Source of the DNA: Candidatus Wirthbacteria bacterium
GTDB lineage: Bacteria > Patescibacteriota > CG2-30-54-11
DNA length: 64,000 bases
NCBI GenBank assembly: GCA_903889905.1
Contig: CAISZI010000053.1
Location: 74,599-138,598, forward strand
Direction of reading: 5' to 3'
The translations under genes were made by a program, and so were the position numbers. Shown here one piece after another: positions 182 to 51,157 of the stretch (position 1 is the first letter of the stretch; each line of letters starts with the position of its first letter). The notes under the pieces are model-generated. The model was not told the DNA's origin, ran no database searches, and worked only from the letters and a program-made list of their open reading frames with translations.

Positions 182-3100
182 TTGTTTAAAAATGGAGCCA
201 ACATGGGTAAGGGTGGAAGCGAATTCGAATCAAGACGGATCGACTTTAAGTTGACGGACATTCAACGCATGGCACTCATACTTCATGACGCTCCTGGCTT
301 ATGTGAACTTATTAGGAATCAACTAGACGGTAGAAGTCGGATTAATTTAGGCGAGTATGACCCGGATGAATCTGACGATGCTTTTTTGATGGCTACAATT
401 GGAGTGCCACGCGTCGGAAGATCTCTTTACGTTGGCGGACATGTGGAAGATATGAGGCAACTACTCAATGCAGCACAGCAGTTTCTTGACACCCAAGCGC
501 CTGTCGATGCAGATGAGTCGATGGTCGAGATAGCGCCGTCTTCAGAGCTTGTCCAAATGATTGCAGATATCCACAATGAAAGTCCTGCATTGTTTCGTAT
601 GCTAGAGTTATATGTCCAAAACGGATGGATTAATGCTACGACGGTTGGGATTCCATTGAGTGTCCAGCCTGTCTTTGAACGTTTATTGGGGGTTGATATC
701 TGGTCACTGTTTGATGGCAGCGAGCAGGATTCGGTGCGAAGTCAGCTGGCAGCCGGGATCAAGGCATATAGGGCGAGTAATGCCAATTACGACATGGGAA
801 ATATAGCTGGCGAGCCTGCCAAGTCGCCGGGGAATACACTGGATAAGATTTCGGAAGATCGTGCCGCGTTTGTTGGGTTGGCAGATAGTGACCCTGACGT
901 TGTGCTGGCAATTCTACAACATCGCAATACATCGGCAATTCCGTTAGGTCGATTAAGTCCAGATGCGATGTCCACTCTGCAAGGCTTGTTTGGGGGAAAT
1001 TTTGATCAGACTTTACCCGGTTCTGTCTGGTGGGAGAAAATCAAACTGGATTATTTGCAAGAAGTTTTAGATGGTATCGATATTGTTGGATTGCGGAAAA
1101 GTATTCGGCGGAGTAAAGCTGAGGTTGATAAAACAACAAGTCTTGAAACATACCCGAGTAGTATAAGTGCCCAGCATGGTGAAATAAATCATGACACACA
1201 AAGAGTAGATTGCCTGACAGGAATGTTTCGAACCAACAAAGCAGCCTTTTGGGCAGTCGAGCATGGTTTGAGACCAGACAATCAGAACGAAATGAATTCG
1301 GCATCGATTGATAGCAGTGTTCAGACAAATTTGGTTGACGCTTTTGGCGGGCAATTCGGTGAGGGCAAATGGAAAGGATTTGATGTTAATGCTTTGAGGC
1401 ATGCCCTTGCTGATCATCAGGTCATTGGCATGATCAATCAAGATGCAAAGCAAACTCGAGATTTAAATAATTCTGGTCAAGGATCCCGTGGGCGAGGTGC
1501 CAATGGATTGTCACTTGAACAGGTTACTGGATTTGAGCTTGATAACGCCGAGACCGCACTGGCAGTCAAAACTGCACTTGAGCAGGCCGATGTGATGGGC
1601 AATGATATTCGAATTGAAGTTGCTAAAGCACTGAGTTATGACACGAGAAAATTGCTCATGAGGATTTTTGAGGCAGATGAAGTGAAGGCACTGGCAACGG
1701 GTGGTCCTAAGCATTGGTACGCCATTACCAATGCCAACTGGCATCGTGCGGGTCTTACTCTAGGCGTGAACGAGCTATGGTTAAATGCGGTGGCCAAAAC
1801 ACGTACATGGGATCCGGACGCCAATCCGGCAGCGATGAACGGCATTGATGATCCAGACAAAATCGAAGCAATGCGCAAACACTATCTGGAATGGAAAGGC
1901 AGGAAAGCGGCTGCAGAAAGCGGAAGGAGACCACATCGTGATGATGTCAGACAGCGAAACGATCTGCGTGCACAACAGAACTCACAAATAGAGAAAACTC
2001 CTGCCTGGGTGCGAGAGAGGAATGCCGAACATATCGCCGATAGAAACCGTCGAAAATTAGATGACGTCAAAATCACATCGACTGGTGGCCTGTCCGGAAC
2101 GACGGTCAGCGACAAGTCGGGCGTCCCGGAAATGTTTGAAATGTTTTTTGATGCCCAAGGGACATATCAACAAGTTTCCCCTGAGGTATTTCAACGTGTC
2201 GTCGAAGCCAAGATGGCCCGTGCCCAGATGCGAATCAATGCCGGATGGGATAAACAAAGTCTGCAGACTGTCAAGAATGAGTTGCTTCGGACTGGTCGGC
2301 ATGATTGTGCGTCGGTTCTGGAAGCCAATTTGCTGCGGCATAAATTGAAACTGGATCCCAAGGACTATGGAATCTCAGGCAAGATGATCGTCGACAAAAA
2401 GGCAGAACAGGTGGCCGAACCAACCGCCGGTGCAGCTACTTTGTCGAGTGCAGAAATAAAACCAGCGGGTATCGATGCGAGAGGATGGGAGGAGGCAAGA
2501 GTATACTTGGACCATGATGCAAAAAAGGGAAGTTGCCATGCTTTGTTCAATTCCCAATCTGAAGCTGAGAGCGCCGCCAAAATATTGGGGATGGGAAAAG
2601 CGGTAAATGGCACGCTCTATGCTCCTTATGGGGATTATGAAAGGTTGAAAGCCGGACTTGAAGAACAATTTCGGAAAGCATCAACCCCACAAGTATTAAC
2701 AACCAGTTCTGTTGAGTCTCGACCCGCCATTACAGAGCAAGCCGAGTTGCCAAGGTTGGATATCAGTATTTGGACAGGAATTCAATATCTGACTGTGGGC
2801 CGCGGTGAATTGACAACTACGACGATTCGTTTTAAATCTGAACAGGTAGCCCTACGCGTCCAATCTGCATTGGGCATGGGCACAGTGGATGGTAGAGATG
2901 TGTTTGTGGAGATTCGTCAACGACAGTCATTGGAACAAGCCGTCGTCAAACAACGGGAAGTCGCATTGTCCCTGTCGCAAAGTGTAGCTCAAGAGTCCCC
3001 TGCTCGAACTAAAGCTGCTCGTCCCGCTTCCTCTCAGGAACAAGCAACGGACCCCAAAGCGACGACTAATAATCAGCGCGATGCGATGTTTTATTCTATG

Positions 3101-3682
3101 GTGATGCAGGGGTTGCGCGGCGAGGGGACGTTTATTTGTGACAGGGATAGCTTTGAAGCAAGGGTTTTGCGCGCCGTCGTGGCGAATTTGAACAATGAAT
3201 TTAAGGTTCCCGGTATTACTTGGAAAGTGGATGATTCTGACTTGATCATCTTCACCACGAGCCGGCAGTCTGCTCTGTTTGAGCAATTTGAACGATTTTT
3301 AACACAAGAACTCAATGCGCAAGCGACGGCACAAAGTCATGAATCAGCTACTGCAGCCAGTCCAGTATCTGGTGTTGATCAACGCGCCAGCGAACGGCAA
3401 CAAAGAATGGACAACCACCAGGACACAACGCTCTGTGCGATGGTCACGGATGGCTTGGCAAACAAAAACCGTTTTAGCTGTGCTGCGGGCTCAGAAGTTG
3501 CCCGGGCCATTAAAAAGGCTTACCAAAAAGCTACCGCAGACTTTCGGCTTGGTCTGCATGTGATGGAAGAGGGAGAAGATATAGTGATTGAGAGTATAAG
3601 TGGGCAGATTGAGCAAATCGAAATTTTTGCAGCGTACCTTTTGGAGGAAATTACTGTGCTAAGGTTGGCAGGTGAGAAATAG
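182..3682 (+). CDS. Large hypothetical protein (1166 aa), acidic, no TM segment and no motif I can recognise
   Basis: 3.5-kb uninterrupted ORF. The antisense ORFs are all short. A rho-independent terminator follows immediately. No catalytic motifs recognised by eye. Confidence 0.65.
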   Translation: MFKNGANMGKGGSEFESRRIDFKLTDIQRMALILHDAPGLCELIRNQLDGRSRINLGEYDPDESDDAFLMATIGVPRVGRSLYVGGHVEDMRQLLNAAQQFLDTQAPVDADESMVEIAPSSELVQMIADIHNESPALFRMLELYVQNGWINATTVGIPLSVQPVFERLLGVDIWSLFDGSEQDSVRSQLAAGIKAYRASNANYDMGNIAGEPAKSPGNTLDKISEDRAAFVGLADSDPDVVLAILQHRNTSAIPLGRLSPDAMSTLQGLFGGNFDQTLPGSVWWEKIKLDYLQEVLDGIDIVGLRKSIRRSKAEVDKTTSLETYPSSISAQHGEINHDTQRVDCLTGMFRTNKAAFWAVEHGLRPDNQNEMNSASIDSSVQTNLVDAFGGQFGEGKWKGFDVNALRHALADHQVIGMINQDAKQTRDLNNSGQGSRGRGANGLSLEQVTGFELDNAETALAVKTALEQADVMGNDIRIEVAKALSYDTRKLLMRIFEADEVKALATGGPKHWYAITNANWHRAGLTLGVNELWLNAVAKTRTWDPDANPAAMNGIDDPDKIEAMRKHYLEWKGRKAAAESGRRPHRDDVRQRNDLRAQQNSQIEKTPAWVRERNAEHIADRNRRKLDDVKITSTGGLSGTTVSDKSGVPEMFEMFFDAQGTYQQVSPEVFQRVVEAKMARAQMRINAGWDKQSLQTVKNELLRTGRHDCASVLEANLLRHKLKLDPKDYGISGKMIVDKKAEQVAEPTAGAATLSSAEIKPAGIDARGWEEARVYLDHDAKKGSCHALFNSQSEAESAAKILGMGKAVNGTLYAPYGDYERLKAGLEEQFRKASTPQVLTTSSVESRPAITEQAELPRLDISIWTGIQYLTVGRGELTTTTIRFKSEQVALRVQSALGMGTVDGRDVFVEIRQRQSLEQAVVKQREVALSLSQSVAQESPARTKAARPASSQEQATDPKATTNNQRDAMFYSMVMQGLRGEGTFICDRDSFEARVLRAVVANLNNEFKVPGITWKVDDSDLIIFTTSRQSALFEQFERFLTQELNAQATAQSHESATAASPVSGVDQRASERQQRMDNHQDTTLCAMVTDGLANKNRFSCAAGSEVARAIKKAYQKATADFRLGLHVMEEGEDIVIESISGQIEQIEIFAAYLLEEITVLRLAGEK

Positions 3683-3860: not shown

Positions 3861-3882
3861 ATGGTGGAGTTGAGGGGAGTCG
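3861..3882. repeat. 22-bp direct repeat (atggtggagttgaggggagtcg) identical to 13398..13419, i.e. the 3' end of tRNA-Ala. Distal att-like boundary of the island
   Basis: Exact 22/22 match to the antisense of the tRNA-Ala 3' acceptor/T-arm region. The flanking sequence does not fold as a tRNA. Confidence 0.8.
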
Positions 3883-4291
3883 TATACAAGTCCCTGCGAA
3901 GCGTTCTGACGGTGAGCAGCTGAACGCAGTAATGACGATGTTGCTACCTACTGATACCGCAGGCTCCCTTCCGATTCGCTGACGAATCTACAGGGATCGA
4001 AATGGATAAGTACCTCTAAACGCGATGACTTGTTAAGATGTACTTTATAAGTTTCACTAAGTTCGAAGACTCACTAAGTTCAGCTTTATGGTGGATATAG
4101 GGTAACAATACTTGAACTTTTTAGCAAGATGATGACTAGGTGGCAGCAGGTAAACCGTTGGAATGGCTTCATGACGGACTTTCTGGAGCACAACAGGGGA
4201 ACAGAAGGGCTTGTGATAGATAAGCTGCGTTTATAGAAGGGGGGCGGTGTGCTATGGTGGGCAGGGTACTCACATACTCAAAGGGGGCAAT

Positions 4292-4600
4292 ATGGACAAA
4301 TCAGACAAGGAAGAACTGAAAGCGGTAGTAGCGTACATCTATGCTCTGGTGAACAAGGTCGAAAGCAGTGATTCTCTTAGCAAAAGCCCGAGAATCAAGA
4401 AAGATATGGCAAATTTGGCAATTGCTTTACGCCATTTCGTTGATAGTGTCGAGAACGATAAAGCTAAACAGGCAGAAACAGGGGAGCAGTCAGAGCAAGG
4501 GCAACCTGCCAAGCTGAAGCCAGGTCAGGCGTATGATGAATGGGGAGAAGTGGTTCAACTATCATTAGCCCACAAGCAGACAGGTATTACGAACAAATAA
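4292..4600 (+). CDS. Small hypothetical protein (102 aa) inside the island
   Basis: ORF with RBS aaggggg 7 nt upstream of the ATG at 4292. The track ORF started at 4247. Confidence 0.5.
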   Translation: MDKSDKEELKAVVAYIYALVNKVESSDSLSKSPRIKKDMANLAIALRHFVDSVENDKAKQAETGEQSEQGQPAKLKPGQAYDEWGEVVQLSLAHKQTGITNK

Positions 4601-5122: not shown

Positions 5123-7027
5123 ATGACCACTTTTCCCAAAATGGACGGTACTTCATATAGCCCACAACAGGAGCTATTTGAGCTATTGCAGGCTCGTTTC
5201 CCCGATGTATTCACCGAGGGGAAAATAGACCCTATCAGGCTCAAGCGGTCTTTGGGTGAACAGGTCAATGTAGATAGCGAGCGCTATGGTTTGAATTGGG
5301 CAGGTAAAAGCGATTGTTACCGCCATATTCAGGAATCAACTACAGCGACCCTCAAACCAGTGCGAAAAGAGTCTGTAGACTTCGACACTACCCAGAACTT
5401 GTTCATCGAGGGAGACAATCTCGAAGTGCTCAAAGTGTTGCAGAAGTCCTACTATGGCAAGGTCAAAATGATTTATATTGACCCGCCATACAACACAGGA
5501 AGTGATAGTTTTATCTATCCAGACAGGTTCCAAGAGTCCCAAGACGATTATCTAAAGAGAATCGGTGAAAAAGACGAATCGGGTAATTTGATGCGAGATG
5601 GTATGTTTCAGAAAAATAGCCGAGATAATGGGCATTACCATTCCAATTGGCTATCAATGATGTACCCACGATTGTTTTTGGCGAGGAATCTATTGCGGGA
5701 AGATGGGGTTATCTTTGTCAGTATTGATAATAATGAAGTCCATAATTTACGGTTGGTAATGGATGAAATATTCGGGGCAGAGAATTTTATAGACTGCATT
5801 ATATGGAAAAAAAGGTATGGCGGTGGTTCAAAGGAAAAATATCTAGTGTCTTTACATGAATACATTTTATTTTATTCCAAAGATGTTAATCATTTAGACC
5901 CACTGTTTGTTCACCAAGACGAAGCAAATATCGCAAGATATTACAAATACAAAGATGAAAAATTTGAAACGAGAGGTCCCTATCGTACTCACCCATTGGA
6001 AGCGACAAAAAGCATGGGGGATAGGAAGAATTTGATTTATCCCATACCAGCACCAGACAAAACGTATATTAACCCTCAGCGTCAATGGCTTTGGAAGAAA
6101 GAAAGGGTAGAACAAGCATTAAAGAATAATGAGCTTGAGTTTATCAAAACCGACAAAGGATACTCAGTTCATACAAAACAGTATTGGCGTGATGAATCCG
6201 GTGAAGTAAGACAGAGTAAAATGTTTTCAATTATCGACAATGTTTATACTCAATCTGGTACAAATGAAATAATCGAGCTATTTGGGAATGCTCAAATTTT
6301 TTCTTTCCCAAAACCTACAGCACTTCTTAAACCCTTGATTCAGCTAACAACAGATTCGGTACAAGAGGAGATAGTTTTAGATTTTTTTGCCGGTTCAGGA
6401 ACCACTGCCCATGCGATTATTGCCCAGAACTATGAGGATGGTGGTAATAGAAAATACATTCTAGTGCAGCTTCCAGAGGCTTGCGCAGACGATAGCGAAG
6501 CATTTAAAAAAGGCTATAAAACCATTGCAGATGTTGCAAAAGAACGTATCAGGAGGGTTGGAAAAGAAATAGTAAAAAAGAAACAATCCAAACTAAATCT
6601 TGATGGAAAAAAGATTGATGTTGGATTCAAAGTGCTTGAATTGGAAGATAGTAATTTCAAGGTCTGGCGAGGGGATGTAGAGTCAGCTGAAGTTTTACTT
6701 GAGCAAATGGAAGCCTTTGTCGATAACACGAATCCTGATGCTATCAAAGAAAGCGTGCTTTATGAACTTATCTTGAAAAGTGGGCTAGATTTGAACGTGG
6801 CTGTTGAGAAAAGGGATATAGGGGGTAAGGCTGTATTTGTGTTGAATGGGGGTAAATTGGCGGTCTGCTTAGAAGATGAGCTCAACCAGGCGGTTGTCGA
6901 TGCTGTTGTCTCTATCAAGCCAGAAAAAGTGCTGTGCTTGGATAAGTCATTTGGTGGTAATGACCAGCTCAAGACTAATGCCATGCTTCAGATGGAACAG
7001 GCAAAGATAGACTTCAAGGTGGTGTAG
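5123..7027 (+). CDS. mod: Type III restriction-modification Mod subunit (beta-class N6-adenine DNA methyltransferase)
   Basis: Motif IV IYIDPPYN lies N-terminal to motif I LDFFAGSGTT. This is the beta-class order typical of Type III Mod. Size 634 aa. Confidence 0.85.
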   Translation: MTTFPKMDGTSYSPQQELFELLQARFPDVFTEGKIDPIRLKRSLGEQVNVDSERYGLNWAGKSDCYRHIQESTTATLKPVRKESVDFDTTQNLFIEGDNLEVLKVLQKSYYGKVKMIYIDPPYNTGSDSFIYPDRFQESQDDYLKRIGEKDESGNLMRDGMFQKNSRDNGHYHSNWLSMMYPRLFLARNLLREDGVIFVSIDNNEVHNLRLVMDEIFGAENFIDCIIWKKRYGGGSKEKYLVSLHEYILFYSKDVNHLDPLFVHQDEANIARYYKYKDEKFETRGPYRTHPLEATKSMGDRKNLIYPIPAPDKTYINPQRQWLWKKERVEQALKNNELEFIKTDKGYSVHTKQYWRDESGEVRQSKMFSIIDNVYTQSGTNEIIELFGNAQIFSFPKPTALLKPLIQLTTDSVQEEIVLDFFAGSGTTAHAIIAQNYEDGGNRKYILVQLPEACADDSEAFKKGYKTIADVAKERIRRVGKEIVKKKQSKLNLDGKKIDVGFKVLELEDSNFKVWRGDVESAEVLLEQMEAFVDNTNPDAIKESVLYELILKSGLDLNVAVEKRDIGGKAVFVLNGGKLAVCLEDELNQAVVDAVVSIKPEKVLCLDKSFGGNDQLKTNAMLQMEQAKIDFKVV

Positions 7028-7030
7028 TAT

Positions 7031-7816
7031 ATGCAAAAGAGTCCATACCTACAAAACTACTATCGTGAAATTGAATTTTCACTATGGAATCGAAAGATAA
7101 ACCATGCAGTCGCTTCTATCACAAGTCTAAAACGAGACAAGAGCAAGAAAAAGTATTTTATTGAGCTGTACTCAACATATCTTCAGCTGATTGAGATTTT
7201 TTGTATCAATGTGTTCGTAATCACTGAGAACGATTTGTGGAGCAACGTTTTTTTGAGTAACCGTCAACTAGCTGAAAAGATACAAAACAGATTTTATCAG
7301 GCTGAAAGTAGTCGTTTTGACAAGAAGTTCAGTACTTTTTTCCTAGAACATTGGGTATTTGGCGTTGAAGATAAGACTGCTATCCGAGACTTTGCTGGGA
7401 AAATAGAGTTGTATTTGGATATTATCAAAGAGAGCCTTTTTGATTATTCCGAAGATAAACATTTTCTGAATTCATACAAACACGGCTTTCGAGTTCAAGC
7501 GGGAGGGAAGAGTACTTTTGGGATAGGAATAGGTACATCTCAAGAAGTTCATAAATTAGGTGATTTCAACGCAAGTGTGACGTATTTTCACAAAAAAGAG
7601 GCGGTGATTTTCGAAAGGCAGATTTGTTTCAACTGGGAACGGATTTACCAAAAAACTTCATTTTTGTTGAATATGCTCCAAAACATCAAAACAGTGTATA
7701 CAGCAAAGTCGAAACAAGTAATAGACATCAATACATTGTTCATTGTTGACTCACAACAGTTTAACCAATTCAGTGGGTATTTTCGTACTAACACCCCAAT
7801 TTTCGAGATAAAATAG
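7031..7816 (+). CDS. Uncharacterised 261-aa protein inserted between mod and res
   Basis: ORF starts 4 nt after the mod stop and ends 1 nt before the res start. This suggests translational coupling in one operon. AT-richer than its neighbours. No known motif recognised. Confidence 0.6.
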   Translation: MQKSPYLQNYYREIEFSLWNRKINHAVASITSLKRDKSKKKYFIELYSTYLQLIEIFCINVFVITENDLWSNVFLSNRQLAEKIQNRFYQAESSRFDKKFSTFFLEHWVFGVEDKTAIRDFAGKIELYLDIIKESLFDYSEDKHFLNSYKHGFRVQAGGKSTFGIGIGTSQEVHKLGDFNASVTYFHKKEAVIFERQICFNWERIYQKTSFLLNMLQNIKTVYTAKSKQVIDINTLFIVDSQQFNQFSGYFRTNTPIFEIK

Positions 7817-7817
7817 A

Positions 7818-10520
7818 GTGGTAATGAAACTTCAATTCGATGCTAGCCAGCAATATCAGCTGGACGCCATCAATTCCATAGTAGACATTTTCAAAGGGCA
7901 GCCTTTGAGCAAGGGTGTTTTTGAGCTTGAGGTAAAGCGTCCTGACGACGAGCTTCAGCTGGGTGGCGAGTTTGTTGTGGGCAATAAGCTCATGCTCGAG
8001 CCGGATACCATCATTGCAAATCTTCATGAAATACAAACTCGGAATGAACTGACAATATCCGAAGTGGCAACTGGAGCAACATTTCCTGCAAGTTTTCCCT
8101 TGGATTTCAGCCGTCGTTTACAATATGGAATGAACTTTTCCATAGAAATGGAAACAGGAACAGGTAAAACCTATGTGTATCTGCGAACTATCCACGAGCT
8201 GTACCAGAAGTATGGTTTCAAAAAGTTTGTTATCGTCGTGCCTAGCATTGCCATCAGGGAAGGAGTGCTCAAGAATCTAGAGATAACAGCCGAGCACTTT
8301 GCCATGCTGTATGAAAACCCAGCACTTAATTTTGAGGTCTATGACCCCAAAAAGAGGAATCTGCTCAAAACCTTTGCTACCAACAACACCTTGCAGATTC
8401 TAGTGATAAACATTGATTCTTTTGCCAAATACAGCGACGAGAAAGCTGGCAAAAACATCATTTACCAAAACAGCGACTGGGGTATCCCGATTGAATACCT
8501 CAAGGCTGTCAGCCCTATCGTCATCGTCGATGAACCGCAAAACATGGAAACCGATATTCGCAAAAAGGCTATAGAGAATCTCAACCCGCTTTGCACTCTG
8601 CGATATTCGGCAACACACAAAAATCTGTACAACGTGGTGTATACCCTAGACCCTGTCAAAGCCTATGATTTGGGCTTGGTCAAAAAGATAGAGGTGGACT
8701 CCGTCATAACCGAGGATAACCACAATGCTGCCCTGATAGAAGTGGTTTCTTTTCAAACCACTTCAAAGTCAGTTAGTGCCAAGCTCAAAATTGAAGTTGT
8801 AGATTCGGAAAGCGTAGGGAAAAAAGCGGTAACAGTAAGGCTCGGTGACGACTTGTACCGACTTTCCAACCAGAGGGAAGTGTACAAAGATGGCTTTATA
8901 GTCAATGACATAGGCTTTCAGGCTAAATCCATTACGTTCAGCAATGGTCTAGTGTTGTATGAAGGGCAGTCTCAAGGGGGCATGACCGATGCGATAATGA
9001 AGTATCAGATTCGGAAAACCATCGAGAATCATGTTGAGAAGGAAGCCAAACTCAGAGGCAAGGGAATCAAAGTCTTGTCTCTATTCTTCATCGACCGTGT
9101 AGCGAACTATCGAGAATATACGGAGGGGAAGCCCAACAAAGGCAAGTTTGCCCTCTGGTTCGAGGAACTATACAAAGAAATAGCCCGAAACCCCAAATAT
9201 CAGGAATTGATGGTTCATTCTGCTGATTCGGTTCATAACGGATACTTTTCTCAAGACAAACAGGGTGGCTGGAAGGATACCAAGGGAACAACCCAGGCTG
9301 ATGATGATACCTACGCCATAATCATGAAAGAAAAAGAAAAACTGCTTTCGATGGAAGAACCTTTAAAGTTTATCTTTTCCCATTCCGCACTCAAAGAAGG
9401 CTGGGACAACCCTAATGTTTTTCAAATCTGTACCCTGAGAGAAATTACTTCAGAGGGGGAAAAGAGACAAACCATAGGACGTGGCTTGAGGCTTTCTGTA
9501 AATCAGGACGGAAAGCGGGTTTTTGATGAGAACATCAACATTCTTACCGTCATTGCCAATGATAGCTATGAGGACTTTGCCAAGTCATTGCAGACCGAAA
9601 TTGAGAGAGAATGTGGAGTCAGCTTTTCAGGCAGGGTAAGGGATAAGCGGAAAAGAAAGCAGATGCAATTGAGAAAGGGCTATCAGCTTGATGAAAATTT
9701 CATCAGCCTTTGGGATAGAATCAAGGTCAAAACCAGATTCCAGGTCAGCTATGATTCCAATGAGTTGATTCGACTGGTTGCCAACGAACTAAAGACGGCA
9801 GCGATAACTGCACCCAAAATCAAAAATATCAAGGTCAAGGTTGACCTAACCAGGCATGGTATCGATACAGGGGTAGTAACCGTCAATGAAAGGACGGAAA
9901 AGTTCAAGGGAAGCGTTCCTGACGTGCTAGGTGACATCCAAAACAAGACGAGGCTGACCAAGGACACGATTCTCAAGATTATCAAGGCTTCGGGTAGGCT
10001 GGCAGACATTTTCATCAACCCGCAGCAATTCATGGACATAACCTCCCATATCATCAACTCAACACTGACCAAGATGATGGTTGATGGTGTGAAGTACGAA
10101 AAAATAGCCAGTGAAGTATGGGAAATGCAACTATTCGAGAATCAGGAGCTGGAAAGCTATCTGGAGAATCTAGTAGAGGTCAAAAAGGTAGAGAAGACCC
10201 TATATAACTATGTACCAGTAGACCATCAAGTAGAGTCTGAGTTTGCCAAAGACCTGGATTCCAGAGAAGACGTGAAGTTCTATTTCAAGCTGCCCTCATG
10301 GTTCACTATCCAAACGCCACTAGGGACATACAATCCTGACTGGGCAATTGTGTTTGAAAAGGATAAAAGGGTTTATTTCGTGGCTGAAACCAAGTCAAAA
10401 GGACAAGAGCTCCGCCCATCAGAACAAATGAAGATTGACTGCGGGCGTAAGCACTTTGAGGAATTTGAAGATGTGACCTATATGGCACCTATCACAAAAG
10501 TCAGCGATATTGTGATTTGA
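7818..10520 (+). CDS. res: Type III restriction enzyme Res subunit (SF2 helicase plus C-terminal PD-(D/E)xK endonuclease)
   Basis: Walker A METGTGKTY. Motif II VIVDEPQN. C-terminal PDWAIV...FVAETK nuclease motif. The probable true start is the ATG at 7824. Confidence 0.85.
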   Translation: MVMKLQFDASQQYQLDAINSIVDIFKGQPLSKGVFELEVKRPDDELQLGGEFVVGNKLMLEPDTIIANLHEIQTRNELTISEVATGATFPASFPLDFSRRLQYGMNFSIEMETGTGKTYVYLRTIHELYQKYGFKKFVIVVPSIAIREGVLKNLEITAEHFAMLYENPALNFEVYDPKKRNLLKTFATNNTLQILVINIDSFAKYSDEKAGKNIIYQNSDWGIPIEYLKAVSPIVIVDEPQNMETDIRKKAIENLNPLCTLRYSATHKNLYNVVYTLDPVKAYDLGLVKKIEVDSVITEDNHNAALIEVVSFQTTSKSVSAKLKIEVVDSESVGKKAVTVRLGDDLYRLSNQREVYKDGFIVNDIGFQAKSITFSNGLVLYEGQSQGGMTDAIMKYQIRKTIENHVEKEAKLRGKGIKVLSLFFIDRVANYREYTEGKPNKGKFALWFEELYKEIARNPKYQELMVHSADSVHNGYFSQDKQGGWKDTKGTTQADDDTYAIIMKEKEKLLSMEEPLKFIFSHSALKEGWDNPNVFQICTLREITSEGEKRQTIGRGLRLSVNQDGKRVFDENINILTVIANDSYEDFAKSLQTEIERECGVSFSGRVRDKRKRKQMQLRKGYQLDENFISLWDRIKVKTRFQVSYDSNELIRLVANELKTAAITAPKIKNIKVKVDLTRHGIDTGVVTVNERTEKFKGSVPDVLGDIQNKTRLTKDTILKIIKASGRLADIFINPQQFMDITSHIINSTLTKMMVDGVKYEKIASEVWEMQLFENQELESYLENLVEVKKVEKTLYNYVPVDHQVESEFAKDLDSREDVKFYFKLPSWFTIQTPLGTYNPDWAIVFEKDKRVYFVAETKSKGQELRPSEQMKIDCGRKHFEEFEDVTYMAPITKVSDIVI

Positions 10521-10559: not shown

Positions 10560-11498
10560 ATGAAAACAACGCTGGCACGACTAAATCGAGTAGAATTGCG
10601 TGAAGTATGGGAGCATGAAGCTCTTGATTTTACTCGCTGGCTTGCTCAGCAGGACAATCTTGATGCTTTAAGCGAAGAAATCGGTGTAGACATCAAATTG
10701 ATAAAAACAGAAGCGAACGTAGGAAAGTACAGCGTAGATATACTTGCCGAAGAAGAAGCATCAGGGAGAAAAATAATCATTGAAAATCAACTTGAGGATA
10801 CAAACCACGACCATCTTGGGAAAATCATTACTTATGCGTCTGGGTACGATGCGGAAATCATTATTTGGATAGTTCGTGATGTTCGTGATGAGCATCAGAA
10901 AGCAATTGAATGGTTAAACGAGCATACTGATGAAAATATAAGCTTTTTCCTTATTAAGATTGAACTTTGGCAGATACAAGGTTCTCCTCCCGCACCAAAA
11001 TTTGAAATCATGGTTAGCCCTAACGAATGGGCAAAAGCTATCAAAACTAGCCCGACAAATGGCGAGCTTACGAATACTAAACTTCAACAACTTGAATTCT
11101 GGAACAAATTTAAAAATTTTGTTCGAGAAAATGATGCCAGCATACGGCTTCAAACGCCACGTCCTCAACACTGGTACGATGTGAGCATGGGAAGCTCGGA
11201 AGCACATATTGCTCTTACAGTTAATACTCGCGAGAATCTTATCGGCTGCGAATTATACATAAGCCGAAACAAAGAACTATATAAATACCTTCTCGAGCGG
11301 AAAGATGAAATTGAACAGAACATCGGAGAGCATGCCGAATGGGTAGATGCAGCAGTTGCTTCAAGGATTAAACATTCCAAAACGGTATCCAGCGTGTTTC
11401 AACAAACTGAAGCAGCAGAATACTTCAAGTGGTTATACGACAAGACAGTTTTGTTTCAGAATGTATTTAGAAAGTACATTCAGGAATTCAAACAGTAG
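10560..11498 (+). CDS. DUF4268-like protein, putative PD-(D/E)xK nuclease-fold protein commonly found next to RM systems
   Basis: Pattern DILAEEE...IIIENQLEDTNHDHLGKIITY resembles the DUF4268 family as I remember it. Family assignment is from memory and not verified. Confidence 0.5.
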   Translation: MKTTLARLNRVELREVWEHEALDFTRWLAQQDNLDALSEEIGVDIKLIKTEANVGKYSVDILAEEEASGRKIIIENQLEDTNHDHLGKIITYASGYDAEIIIWIVRDVRDEHQKAIEWLNEHTDENISFFLIKIELWQIQGSPPAPKFEIMVSPNEWAKAIKTSPTNGELTNTKLQQLEFWNKFKNFVRENDASIRLQTPRPQHWYDVSMGSSEAHIALTVNTRENLIGCELYISRNKELYKYLLERKDEIEQNIGEHAEWVDAAVASRIKHSKTVSSVFQQTEAAEYFKWLYDKTVLFQNVFRKYIQEFKQ

Positions 11499-11770: not shown

Positions 11771-13456
11771 ATGCCAAGTCAGAAACCCAACCTTCTTGAA
11801 ATACTACGAGAACAACAAGGGCATAATGCAATAAAGAAGGACGAGAAGGACTTCAAGTACATAATCTATGCTCGTAAATCGACAGACAGCAAGGAGCATC
11901 AAGAAAAGTCACTGCCTGACCAAGTAAAAGCCTGTAAACTGCTTGCTGATAGCAAAGAATTGCATTACTTGAAGTCAGAAATTATTGAAGAGAAGGAATC
12001 AGCAAGGGAGCCAGATATACGCCCGATGTTTCGACGTATGATGGATGACATCAAATCTGGCAAGCATGATGGCATCATTACATGGCATCCTGACAGGCTA
12101 GCACGCAATATGAAGGAGGCTGGTGAAATTATCGACCTGCTAGACAAGAAAATCATCCAAGACATCAAATTTGCAAGTGTAACCTTTGACAACGATTCAA
12201 ACGGCAAGATGATGCTAGGTATTTCTTTTGTCCTGTCGAAACAGTACTCCGACAAGCTAAGCACTGACATCAGGCGAGGGATTGAGAACAGGGTAGCAGA
12301 GGGGCAGTACCTGAGCAGAACCAAGCATGGATACTACAAGGACAGGTATAATTTTCTACGCCCTGATGGTAATAACTTTGCTTTGATGAAGCAGGCTTGG
12401 CAGATGCGGTTGAATGGGCAGAAAATTGAGGATATAGCTGCCTTTTTGAATAAACAAGGGTATCAGCAGGCAGGCGAGGCTGGTAAAACTCATACACCCT
12501 TTACATGGAATGTAAAGAAACTGGCAGAGCGCTTTCATGACACTATCTATGCTGGTGTGTTGAAATACGGAAAGGATTCAGTCAGCCTGATAGAGGAATA
12601 CGACTTTATTCCGATGGTTACTGAAGAAGAATTTTTAGCGATAAACAAGACGCAATATATAGGTAATCCCTTCCGGTCTCGGTATAAGGTGGGTTCCAGG
12701 AAACAGACGAGAGCTGATTTTCTTCGGAGGATGGTGTTTTGCAGCTCCTGCAAGAAACCGATGGCGACAGGCATTACTTCAAAGAAAGACCAAAAGGGCG
12801 ACGAGACAAATTATTTCTATTTCAGATGCGACAACAAGAAGTGCAAGCAAAAGGGTAAATCAGTCCGTGGTAAAGTCCTTGAAGATTTTGTCATTGATTT
12901 TTTGGACAAGAACAAGATAGCTTCAAAATCTATCTATGAAACGTACGTGCGAGATATGGAGAATCATCTACGCCAAGAGCAACAAGCAATTCTTGGGCAG
13001 GAGAAAACACTAGCCAAGAAGCTTGTACAGGCTAAGGAGCTTATGAAAAAGACCAAGGAGCTCATGCTAGACAACAAAGATGCTAGCCTAAGGGAAGAGC
13101 TTACTGGTGACTACAAACAGTATCAAGGGGAGGCTGAGGGCTTGGATGATGAGCTACAGGCTATCCAGAGGGTGAAAAAAGAGGGGAAAGATGAAATAAT
13201 GGACTACAAAACGTTTCTTGAACTTATCGAGAAAGTGCCCGAGATACTTAGACAAACGACCACTTTGAAGGGGAAGGATAGTATCATCAGAGAAATCTTC
13301 ATGAACTTTACAGTAGACCGCAGGAAAGTCTTGTCGTATAAGCTAAAACCGCCCTTTGATGGGTTCATCAAGAGCGGTTTCAACCAGACTTTCACCTATG
13401 GTGGAGTTGAGGGGAGTCGAACCCCTGACCTCTGCAATGCGAATGCAGCGCTCTAG
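11771..13456 (+). CDS. Large serine recombinase (resolvase N-terminal domain plus zinc-ribbon and coiled-coil C-terminal domain)
   Basis: YIIYARKSTDSKEHQ...DRLARN catalytic resolvase motifs. C-terminal Cys cluster CSSCKK...RCDNKKCKQKG. The ORF 3' end overlaps the antisense strand of tRNA-Ala. Confidence 0.85.
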   Translation: MPSQKPNLLEILREQQGHNAIKKDEKDFKYIIYARKSTDSKEHQEKSLPDQVKACKLLADSKELHYLKSEIIEEKESAREPDIRPMFRRMMDDIKSGKHDGIITWHPDRLARNMKEAGEIIDLLDKKIIQDIKFASVTFDNDSNGKMMLGISFVLSKQYSDKLSTDIRRGIENRVAEGQYLSRTKHGYYKDRYNFLRPDGNNFALMKQAWQMRLNGQKIEDIAAFLNKQGYQQAGEAGKTHTPFTWNVKKLAERFHDTIYAGVLKYGKDSVSLIEEYDFIPMVTEEEFLAINKTQYIGNPFRSRYKVGSRKQTRADFLRRMVFCSSCKKPMATGITSKKDQKGDETNYFYFRCDNKKCKQKGKSVRGKVLEDFVIDFLDKNKIASKSIYETYVRDMENHLRQEQQAILGQEKTLAKKLVQAKELMKKTKELMLDNKDASLREELTGDYKQYQGEAEGLDDELQAIQRVKKEGKDEIMDYKTFLELIEKVPEILRQTTTLKGKDSIIREIFMNFTVDRRKVLSYKLKPPFDGFIKSGFNQTFTYGGVEGSRTPDLCNANAAL

Positions 13457-13475
13457 CCAACTGAGCTACAACCCC
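13399..13475 (-). tRNA. tRNA-Ala(CGC), 77 nt including CCA
   Basis: Manual fold gives acceptor GGGGTTG/CAACTCC with a G3:U70 pair, D-arm GCTC/GAGC, anticodon loop TTCGCAT, T-arm AGGGG-TTCGACT-CCCCT, and discriminator A followed by CCA. Confidence 0.85.
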
Positions 13476-13654
13476 ATGAAGAAGCAGTGAGCATGGAGCA
13501 AGGAGTTATGAGAAGAAAGGTGCGAAGTTGGCTAGGGCCAACTGTCTAGGATCCCCCGAAGTGGAGACGCCTCGTCGAAACGGAGTGGGGAAGCTACAAC
13601 CCCATGAAGAAGCAGTGAGCATGGAGCAAGGAGTTATGAGAAGAAAGGTGCGAA
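13464..13654. repeat. Two perfect 63-bp direct repeats (13464..13526 and 13592..13654). Each contains the first 12 nt of tRNA-Ala plus 51 nt of its upstream region
   Basis: Exact duplication read directly. Spacing is 128 bp. Confidence 0.8.
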
Positions 13655-13835
13655 TGTGGCGGGCCAATTAAATGTACAGGTCGCAGTATATAAAGATTTG
13701 GGTTAGCCGTCCAGAGAAAGTAGTCATTCTGAGTGTAAACTTCTGAGGTGGAGCGAAGAATCCTTACTGCTAACGAACCAAATGGTGGGTTTGTACTGTC
13801 AGTGAGGATCCTTCACAAAGCTTCAGGATGACGGA

Positions 13836-49729: not shown

Positions 49730-51157
49730 ATGTCAGATACAACAGAATTCAGTCAAGATAAATCCCCTTTCCAGATCGACCGGTCGCGATTTGACCATGT
49801 CAATCAGGAACATTTGGCGTACAAGGCGCCGCTGGGATTGAGTGAAGAGCTGGTGCGGGATATTTCCAAAACCAAAGGTGAACCGGAATGGATGCTGGAG
49901 AAGCGGCTGGAGGGATTGCGGACATTCAACGCCATGCCGATCCCAACCTGGGGGCCGGATTTGAGCGATTTGGATTTGTCACAATTACACTTGTTTATGC
50001 GGCCCAAGGCCAAACAAAATGCCCGCAAGTGGGAAGATGTGCCCGAGGACATCCGTGGGACGTTTGATAAACTGGGCATTCCCGAAGCTGAGAAAAAGGC
50101 GCTGGCCGGTGTGGGTGCGCAGTACGAATCCGAAGTGGTGTATCACAATTTAAAAAAAGAATGGGAAGATCAGGGCGTGGTGTTTATGGACTGTGATGAA
50201 GGCCTGCGGACACATCCGGAAATGTTCCAGAAATACTTTATGACGAGCTGTATCCCGATTAATTTGCATAAATTTACGGCTTTGCACGCGGCTCTGTGGA
50301 GCGGCGGTACGTTTATTTATATTCCGCCCAAGGTCAAACTCGAGATTCCGCTGCAGGCGTATTTTCGCATGAACGCCAAACAGGGCGGGCAGTTTGAGCA
50401 TACGCTGATTATTGTGGACGAAGGCGCGGAGCTGCATTATATCGAAGGTTGCAGCGCGCCGCAGTACTTGTCCAATTCGCTGCACGCCGGCGGTGTGGAA
50501 ATCCATGTCATGAAAGGCGCCCGGGCGCGCTACTCCAGTATCGAAAACTGGTCCAAAAATACCTACAACCTCAACACCAAACGTGCTGTGGTCGCGGAAA
50601 GTGGCGTGATCGAATGGGTCAACGGCAACCTGGGTTCCAAAACGACCATGCTTTACCCGTGTTCCATTCTGATCGGAGATCGTTCGCGGTCGGATTATAT
50701 CGGCATTGCCTATGCCGGGGCAGGCCAAAATCAGGATACGGGCGCCAAGGTGATCCATGTGGGCAAAAACACCAGTTCCACCATCCAGGCCAAATCGATT
50801 TCGGCTTATGGCGGTATCACTACTTACCGTGGGCAACTCAGTGTCAAAAAAGGTGCGGTCAATGCCAAATCCAGCGTGCGTTGTGACGCCTTGATGATGG
50901 ACGACAAATCCAAATCCAACACCTATCCGTACATGGATATTCACCAGCCCAAAATTGACATCGCGCATGAAGCCACAGTGGGCAAGATTGGCTCGGAACA
51001 GATTTTTTACCTGATGAGCAGGGGACTGAGCGAAGATGAAGCGACCAAAATGATCGTCTCGGGCTTTATTGAACCGGTGGTGAAAGAGTTGCCGCTGGAA
51101 TACGCGGTGGAACTCAATCGTTTGATTGAATTAGAAATGGAAGGAAGCCTGGGTTGA
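49730..51157 (+). CDS. sufB: Fe-S cluster assembly protein SufB
   Basis: 475 aa, highly conserved SufB sequence. Confidence 0.9.
   Translation: MSDTTEFSQDKSPFQIDRSRFDHVNQEHLAYKAPLGLSEELVRDISKTKGEPEWMLEKRLEGLRTFNAMPIPTWGPDLSDLDLSQLHLFMRPKAKQNARKWEDVPEDIRGTFDKLGIPEAEKKALAGVGAQYESEVVYHNLKKEWEDQGVVFMDCDEGLRTHPEMFQKYFMTSCIPINLHKFTALHAALWSGGTFIYIPPKVKLEIPLQAYFRMNAKQGGQFEHTLIIVDEGAELHYIEGCSAPQYLSNSLHAGGVEIHVMKGARARYSSIENWSKNTYNLNTKRAVVAESGVIEWVNGNLGSKTTMLYPCSILIGDRSRSDYIGIAYAGAGQNQDTGAKVIHVGKNTSSTIQAKSISAYGGITTYRGQLSVKKGAVNAKSSVRCDALMMDDKSKSNTYPYMDIHQPKIDIAHEATVGKIGSEQIFYLMSRGLSEDEATKMIVSGFIEPVVKELPLEYAVELNRLIELEMEGSLG

Follow-up and report, generated by a model that had tools for sequence, protein, structure and literature searches.

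The window examined in this work is a stretch of 64,000 nucleotides (nt) from a Candidatus Wirthbacteria bacterium (contig CAISZI010000053.1, positions 74,599 to 138,598), and it carries a Type III restriction-modification (RM) operon in which an additional gene, here called X, is placed between the methyltransferase gene mod and the restriction gene res. The whole Type III RM locus is the cargo of a 9.5-kb island integrated at a tRNA-Ala gene. The three genes of the operon lie on the same strand, head to tail, and the features of the junction are the following:

5123 to 7027, + strand: Mod, the Type III methyltransferase (PF01555, E 1e-37; PADLOC MTase_III PDLC03634, E 2.9e-198)
7016 to 7022, + strand: Shine-Dalgarno-like AAGGTGG, read from the sequence, inside the 3' end of mod and 8 nt before the start of X
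7031 to 7816, + strand: gene X, 261 amino acids (aa), from ATG at 7031 to stop TAG at 7814-7816, coding for a stand-alone protein predicted to be HEPN-like
7824 to 10520, + strand: Res, the Type III restriction subunit (PF04851, PF19778; PADLOC REase_III, E 3.5e-293)

The mod stop codon is the TAG at 7025-7027, which leaves a spacer of 3 nt (TAT) before X. On the other side, the first in-frame start codon of res is the GTG at 7818, 1 nt after X, but the ATG at 7824 is most likely the start, because the homologous Res proteins begin there (MKLQFDA in locus L004 and MKLHFED in locus L066; L numbers denote the loci collected for comparison). An earlier reading of this DNA, made from its letters and here called the sequence-only reading, had described X as tightly coupled to both neighbours. 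This stands for the 3 nt after mod and for the 1 nt before the GTG, whereas the likelier start of res widens the second spacer to 7 nt. The same reading had described X as AT-richer than its neighbours, and it is in fact the most AT-rich gene of the operon, with a GC content of 0.355 against 0.403 for mod and 0.438 for res; the chromosome to the right of the island has 0.50. Promoter-like or terminator-like patterns were looked for on the + strand from 7000 to 7830 and none were seen, which is weak evidence. Judged from this arrangement, X is probably co-transcribed with mod and res. That much of the tight coupling claimed earlier can be kept, but the spacing by itself is a weak sign of functional coupling, since most X homologues come from the compact genomes of the Candidate Phyla Radiation (CPR).

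Mod and Res are both intact, and the earlier description of X as a genuine gene wedged between them holds. Mod matches positions 7-617 of the 621-position PADLOC MTase_III model, and is 46% identical to the Mod of L004, with the termini conserved to the last residue and the centre divergent. Res has a helicase and a C-terminal PD-(D/E)xK endonuclease domain (RE_endonuc), is aligned with the Type III model from residue 1, and is 64% identical to the Res of L004 over its full length. The sequence-only reading had named a match of X to a domain of Mod or Res as a finding that would overturn it; the check was run, and X matches no Mod or Res model. A frameshifted or fused piece of Mod or Res was also considered and is ruled out, both proteins being full length and aligning end to end with their homologues. 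The centre of mod (5723-6322) has a GC content of 0.34-0.36, AT-rich like X, with 0.44-0.47 at the mod termini. This AT-rich centre is the very part which diverges from the Mod of L004; we read it as the target-recognition region, and its composition and divergence suggest module swapping within the gene.

The gene X has 35 homologues at 28-44% identity, with E values down to 7e-65, and an exhaustive profile search of 1.84 billion representative proteins gathered its family into 88 clusters. Together with a confident predicted fold, these relatives establish X as a real gene rather than a chance open reading frame (ORF). The full-length members are all stand-alone proteins of about 250-300 aa, none being fused to another domain, and the family is small, rare and unnamed. 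X alone gave no family match in Pfam, NCBIfam or PADLOC, 71 relatives scanned singly against Pfam, PADLOC and PHROGs gave no recurring family, and a sequence-profile search of the Protein Data Bank (PDB) with the X family returned noise only. No motif had been recognised in X by eye, and the library models of Pfam, NCBIfam, PADLOC and PHROGs are likewise silent. Paralogy with the 263-aa gene of the Type I locus L003, and with a DUF5677 protein, was considered and rejected in both cases (hhalign probability <1%). The named sources of the family are mostly CPR or Patescibacteria, including Peregrinibacteria/Peribacteria, Gracilibacteria, Saccharibacteria, Gottesmanbacteria and Beckwithbacteria, and the family also occurs in single genomes of Bdellovibrionales and Gammaproteobacteria. 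It was not found in the IMG/VR viral contigs, the INPHARED phages or the PLSDB plasmids, and a megablast of the locus against plasmids and E. coli genomes gave nothing useful.

The structure of X was modelled with AlphaFold2 from a 32-sequence alignment, with a predicted local distance difference test (pLDDT) score of 91.6 and a predicted template modelling (pTM) score of 0.89. The model contains helices H1 (17-32), H2 (36-66, with Q52 and E55), H3 (121-151) and H4 (202-224), a helical insert at 69-109, a five-strand sheet inserted at 155-200, and a C-terminal strand at 250-259. The end of H3 reads L146-N147-S-Y-K150-H151-G-F-R154. The leading structural matches align 116-125 residues at 3.2-3.4 A, and 11 of the first 14 are HEPN or HEPN-like, judged by reading the entries. 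The matches include the C-domain of kanamycin nucleotidyltransferase, AbiA, TTHA0636, an integron-cassette HEPN protein, AF0298 and Roquin, and at lower rank Csm6, Csx1, RnlA, AbiV and sacsin. The AbiB, AbiJ and AbiV proteins have been called HEPN from comparable superpositions, of about 118 residues at 2.9 A (PMC13064643). Foldseek searches of the model against PDB and against the BFVD viral structures gave nothing significant. A structure search had been proposed in the sequence-only reading as a check, and its answer is divided: nothing significant from Foldseek, but HEPN-like matches otherwise, covering the helical core only. In the model, the whole two-part architecture thus appears to be without a close solved relative, and the helical core alone resembles a known fold.

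Conservation across the family falls on a small set of residues. E55, N147, K150, H151 and R154 are invariant or near-invariant (at least 90%) in all four alignments made, E55 being invariant in three of them. In the 71-sequence alignment, E55, K150 and H151 are invariant, while Y50, Q52, Y139, L146, N147, R154 and F200 are kept in at least 90%. When the most distant branch is included (motif RDEYNAYKHSFR), N147, K150, H151 and R154 are invariant and E55 is kept in at least 90%, and in an alignment based on the distant-branch protein P0128 the equivalents of Q52, E55, N147, K150, H151 and R154 are all invariant. The P0128 model (pLDDT 85) has the same topology, with N176-K179-H180-R183 at the terminus of helix 3, the sheet coming next.

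These positions can be compared with the published survey of HEPN domains. There, helix 3 ends in the Rx4-6H motif, whose R is usually followed by N, D or H. A conserved acidic residue, where there is one, belongs to helix 2 and sits close to the motif. The fold is further marked by inserts that separate helices 2 and 3, and in Csx1 a beta-hairpin comes directly after the motif (PMC3710099). X agrees with every one of these points except for the R itself, having E55 in helix 2, its insert at 69-109 and its sheet after the motif. The register N-x3-H of X is that of solved HEPN toxins (GLRNRLVHEY, GLRNIAVHDY), as compared with motif fragments of HEPN toxins in the PDB that were recovered with a constructed DUF86-like consensus. 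We consider it likely that the modelled core of X is HEPN-derived. Fold and motif position together predict a HEPN-type site made of E55 with N147, K150, H151 and R154, in which the role of the canonical arginine may fall to K150 or R154. As a speculation, the beta-sheet that follows the motif may be a lid or a sensor.

The genomic surroundings of X were compared over about 50 distinct loci from genomes and metagenomes, in which ORFs were called and neighbours clustered. X nearly always points in the same direction as its neighbours, with gaps commonly from -17 to +11 nt, and it is embedded in RM genes at 11 loci (3 Type III, 7 Type I and 1 Type II-like). The arrangements are these:

Type III RM: mod-X-res (window)
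Type III RM: mod-(TIR-like-8xMP)-X-res-serine recombinase (L004, L005)
Type I RM: hsdR-hsdM-hsdS-X (L003, L009, L011, L018)
Type I RM: hsdM-DUF3800-X-hsdS (L035)
Type I RM: hsdM-X (L038)
Type I RM: hsd genes close to X (L037)
Type II-like RM: X after a methylase and an Mrr_cat nuclease (L063)
Helicase-nuclease: giant superfamily 1 (SF1) helicase(-nuclease) genes upstream of X (L010, L041)
Cap15-like: a Cap15-like receptor gene upstream of X (L015, L037, L039, L053)
DUF5677: a DUF5677 gene downstream of X (seven loci)
Other: TPR proteins and a metallo-beta-lactamase (MBL)-fold protein (several loci)
Recombinases: of the serine or tyrosine kind, near X (about a dozen loci)
No defence character: copper-oxidase genes and a permease gene (L007)

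X is a portable module of many kinds of defence operon, and not a part of one enzyme. An absence of RM linkage among the homologues would have spoken against the sequence-only reading; this was examined, and many homologues, at the 11 loci above, are RM-linked. Its suggestion that X serves the Type III enzyme as a subunit for specificity or regulation is unlikely, with only 3 of about 50 X loci being Type III and with X also present in Type I, Type II-like and RM-free stretches.

Some of these neighbourhoods recur in their own right. A CPR operon found at L015 (6429-11237), and also at L037, L039, L053 and L043, encodes, in this order, an unknown protein of 300 aa, a Cap15-like cyclic-dinucleotide-receptor protein (208 aa), X, an unknown protein of 556 aa and DUF5677, and may be a system similar to the cyclic-oligonucleotide-based anti-phage signalling system (CBASS). 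DUF5677, a tested defence candidate (bioRxiv 10.1101/2025.10.07.681051), directly follows X in four further loci. About 2.5 kb downstream of X, the Type I loci L003 (11299-13208) and L011 (11273-13191) carry an AAA_21/RloB pair, an OLD/PARIS-like ATPase with a Toprim protein; with this pair near X, these Gracilibacteria loci are multi-system defence islands.

The position occupied by X in the window is itself variable. A tblastn search with Res against the PLSDB plasmids matched 286 records, and the 13 best annotated, 42-54% identical, were inspected. The genes mod and res are adjacent in 7 of these 13 relatives, and another gene lies between them in the other 6. The sequence-only reading held that Type III mod and res are normally adjacent, which describes the seven but not the six. 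The genes found in the mod-res slot mostly have a start-stop overlap with res and are as follows:

Chryseobacterium plasmid: PDDEXK nuclease
Rhizobium plasmid: DUF262 protein
Acinetobacter plasmid: split DUF262/DUF1524 GmrSD-like gene
Thiodictyon plasmid: RhuM-family protein
Planctomycete plasmid: unknown protein of 565 aa
Monoglobus plasmid: ORF of 56 aa

Two cassettes fill the slot in L004 and L005, both CPR loci: a TIR-like gene with 8xMP, then X. Among the Type III loci compared, X stands before res in these two as in the window; the 13 plasmid relatives hold other genes or none. The window and L004 are similar in Res (64%), Mod (46%) and X (44%) alike, which argues that mod-X-res was passed on as one unit, by inheritance or by transfer. 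In this Type III subfamily the mod-res junction behaves as a recurrent cassette slot, holding X, other genes or nothing. A comparable situation is given by the Rlo genes of Campylobacter jejuni Type I loci, which are variable accessory genes of RM operons in the account cited in PMC4619093; the likeness is that unrelated accessory genes swap at a fixed position inside an RM operon. However, Rlo, RhuM, DUF262 and PDDEXK proteins belong to other families than X, and that slot was described for Type I loci. No description of an accessory slot for Type III mod-res was found in the literature, which is absence of evidence only.

Two further observations belong to these relatives. The pair in L004 (2588-3478) and L005 (868-1758), between mod and X, consists of a ThsB-like TIR protein (132 aa) and an '8xMP' octameric membrane protein (162 aa), and looks like a two-gene cassette of TIR plus membrane effector inside a Type III operon. 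Among the plasmid Type III relatives (L056-L062, L066-L071), five share a helicase-related protein, DUF4391, Mod and Res, and two others have an SNF2-related gene before Mod; these arrangements suggest larger Type III-derived systems.

The explanation that we favour brings these lines together. X is a member of a small, undescribed family of stand-alone proteins with a predicted HEPN-like four-helix-bundle core, and would travel as a promoterless cassette inside defence operons. Here it fills the variable slot between mod and res, in an RM system which is itself island cargo, and would be expressed from the RM promoter. Its product may be a metal-independent RNase-type or otherwise toxic effector, with a putative site drawn from H151, K150, R154, N147 and E55. 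Acting largely alone, and not as a subunit of the Type III enzyme, it could add a second, abortive-infection-like layer of defence. We put the prospect that X is such a toxic effector, most simply a metal-independent RNase forming this second layer, at about an even balance. Of the options listed in the sequence-only reading, the one that agrees best with the HEPN-like fold and with the defence-operon contexts is an abortive-infection-type effector. The setting has precedents, as RM systems carry accessory toxin-like genes (PMC12707154), and RM operons harbour HEPN genes of at least 16 clades, PrrC being the paradigm (PMC3710099).

Several points weigh against an effector of this kind. The canonical Arg of Rx4-6H is absent from the family, position 146 being Leu in the main branch and, in the distant one, Tyr. 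This lowers the HEPN claim without excluding it, since the accepted HEPN families Parep1/8 and c2405 also lack the Arg, and for accepted families with the His but no Arg other basic residues have been proposed to compensate (PMC3710099). HMMER gave no HEPN family match for X and up to 71 relatives in Pfam, NCBIfam, PADLOC, PHROGs and PDB sequences, and some HEPN domains, for example that of AbiA, are non-catalytic (PMC13064643). About three-quarters of the X loci show no RM gene in the stretch fetched, and at L007 X sits among copper-oxidase and permease genes. No antitoxin gene or ATPase partner is evident that would restrain X as a toxin. Nor is there an antitoxin RNA upstream of it, the spacer being 3 nt, with no tandem repeats and no Rfam family except the tRNA.

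The HepT/HEPN toxins of MNT-HEPN (type VII) toxin-antitoxin (TA) systems (PDB 7ae2, 5yep, 8xdj; HI0074, 1jog) are accompanied by an MNT gene, which is not present beside X, and have the motif R-N-x3-H-x-Y in place of L/Y-N-x2-K-H-x2-R. X is also twice as long, with its helical insert and five-strand sheet, and has no sequence-level match to them. The proteins AbiV, AbiJ, AbiB and AbiD/F share features with X, being stand-alone, about 200-350 aa, partly HEPN by structure superposition only, and in some cases RM-embedded (PMC3710099, PMC13064643). However, the antitoxin RNA repeats found directly upstream of the type III TA systems AbiD/F and AbiV were not found at X.

The closest rival is a guardian in the manner of PrrC, in which X would be held inactive by contact with Res or Mod, and freed as a toxin once the enzyme is disabled by an anti-restriction factor of a phage. 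PrrC of the Type Ic RM system EcoprrI, like RloC, is generally taken as the model for a restriction-coupled effector of the second line, its HEPN-type gene lying between RM genes and being expressed together with them (PMC3710099, PMC12707154), and the same sources extend the proposal to RM-linked HEPN genes in general. The tight spacers on both sides of X suit this idea, as does the X-res juxtaposition, kept in the window and in L004/L005 despite the divergence of Mod, X and the rest of the slot, and so do seven Type I loci where X immediately follows hsdS or lies between it and hsdM. PrrC differs, however, in having an N-terminal ABC-ATPase, a canonical Rx4-6H and a Type I locus, whereas X is a single 261-aa domain with a beta insert, lacks the Arg, has no detectable sequence similarity to PrrC, and occurs in Type I, II, III and non-RM operons. 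An ABC-ATPase of the PrrC/RloC type is absent from the X model and from all searches, every family member being 250-300 aa, so that X has neither this nor another PrrC-like sensing domain. Three unrelated RM types as partners argue against a specific protein interface, and X is also found with helicase-nuclease, Cap15-like, TPR and DUF5677 genes in operons without RM genes. Since X accompanies three unrelated RM types and is also present where there is none, an autonomous effector is preferred to a PrrC-like guard; the many RM-free loci speak against an obligate coupling, and we regard the guard as rather unlikely. Its bolder form is a decidedly unlikely prospect: the X family would be rewired HEPN-derived enzymes (N-x2-K-H-x2-R with the helix-2 Glu, gated by the sheet), serving as a portable guardian of Type I, II and III RM systems which fires when the RM system is neutralised.

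The missing catalytic Arg also lends itself to a different role, that of a non-catalytic HEPN-like adaptor: by dimerising, or by binding a nucleotide or nucleic acid, X would modulate the neighbouring defence enzymes or serve as their scaffold. The HEPN domains of nucleotidyltransferases and of AbiA are such non-catalytic modules for binding or dimerisation (PMC3710099, PMC13064643), and no restraining partner would be needed. Yet the strict invariance of H151, K150, R154, N147 and E55 across 17-44% identity resembles an active site, and one regulatory target common to such diverse partners is hard to picture; an adaptor is a serious rival, though on this evidence unlikely. X could instead be a selfish cassette for addiction or anti-defence, which stabilises the island or counters something else and takes no part in phage defence. 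The integrative island with its serine recombinase, the frequency of recombinases near the homologues and the patchy phyletic spread of the family are all compatible with this. The neighbours of X, however, are defence genes and not transfer or replication genes, and X was not found on a phage, viral contig or plasmid, where anti-defence genes are expected, which makes the idea very unlikely. The last option, a dedicated Type III component (a subunit for specificity or regulation) or a frameshifted fragment of Mod or Res, has in its favour only the position between mod and res with the tight spacing. It is largely refuted and scarcely credible: both proteins are complete and align with homologues over their entire length, X matches none of their models, close Type III relatives lack X or hold unrelated slot genes, and most X homologues lie outside Type III loci.

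Toxin-like genes embedded in RM operons have been known since PrrC and the HEPN survey of 2013, and the toxic effector favoured here extends that principle without overturning it. New are the unnamed family with its altered motif and beta insert, its occurrence inside a Type III operon, and the evidence for the Type III mod-res junction as a recurrent cassette slot. If X is an effector, it provides a new, compact (about 260 aa), single-gene candidate for the anti-phage catalogue, and if it were a guardian after all, it would be the first of its kind reported in a Type III system. The altered motif, without the Arg and with an invariant Lys-His and a downstream Arg, would show to what extent a HEPN active site can be remodelled. 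Because no model of Pfam, NCBIfam, PADLOC or PHROGs detects the family, it escapes the defence finders now in use, and its members, mostly from CPR (Patescibacteria) metagenome-assembled genomes, bear on defence and gene exchange in little-studied bacteria. Scanning of mod-res gaps would be a cheap route to further accessory defence genes.

The island which carries the operon has the following additional features:

3861 to 3882, + strand: distal attachment (att) repeat of 22 nt, ATGGTGGAGTTGAGGGGAGTCG, the left end of the island and a perfect direct repeat of 13398-13419
4247 to 4600, + strand: small ORF of 117 aa (GTG at 4247) or 102 aa (ATG at 4292), no Pfam family
10560 to 11498, + strand: DUF4268 gene, a PADLOC PDC-S11 candidate defence gene (PF14088, E 1.3e-28; PDLC04911, E 4.9e-120)
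11771 to 13456, + strand: large serine recombinase with Resolvase, Recombinase and Zn_ribbon_recom domains
13399 to 13475, - strand: tRNA-Ala(CGC), the integration target (ARAGORN; Rfam tRNA, 69.4 bits)

The proximal att repeat (13398-13419) is the 3' end of the tRNA-Ala gene, whose last 21-22 nt recur perfectly at 3861-3882; by our own estimate, a perfect 22-nt repeat is expected by chance about 6e-6 times in 14.5 kb. The island has a GC content of 0.42 against 0.48 and 0.50 in its flanks, and its cargo consists of the small ORF, mod, X, res, the DUF4268/PDC-S11 gene and the large serine recombinase, which is presumably the integrase. It has been proposed that serine recombinases mark defence cargo (bioRxiv 10.1101/2025.10.07.681051). 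The DUF4268 gene begins 39 nt after res, and DUF4268 has been reported as a domain fused to GmrSD-type enzymes (PMC4619093). Neither this gene nor the small ORF at 4247-4600 was found at any other X locus.

The recombinase ORF crosses the att repeat and continues into the tRNA gene, which is encoded on the other strand; the last 19 or so codons of the ORF are therefore tRNA-derived and would change on excision. Near the same end lies a 69-nt direct repeat, 97% identical between its copies at 13464-13532 and 13592-13660. The first copy begins in the 5' end of the tRNA-Ala gene and runs upstream; another integration may have left the repeat behind, or a tRNA leader may have been duplicated. An ORF of 1166 aa (182-3682, + strand), immediately left of the island, has a repetitive, low-complexity look and matches no NCBIfam family.

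The host is bacterial, with RF1, PrmC, ObgE, DusB and CoaBC. Every host protein checked is a singleton at 90% identity, which indicates an unsampled lineage. The closest named relatives of the SufB protein (49730-51157), at about 70-76% identity, are annotated as DPANN archaea (Woesearchaeota, Pacearchaeota and Nanoarchaeota), which points to inter-domain transfer or mis-binning.

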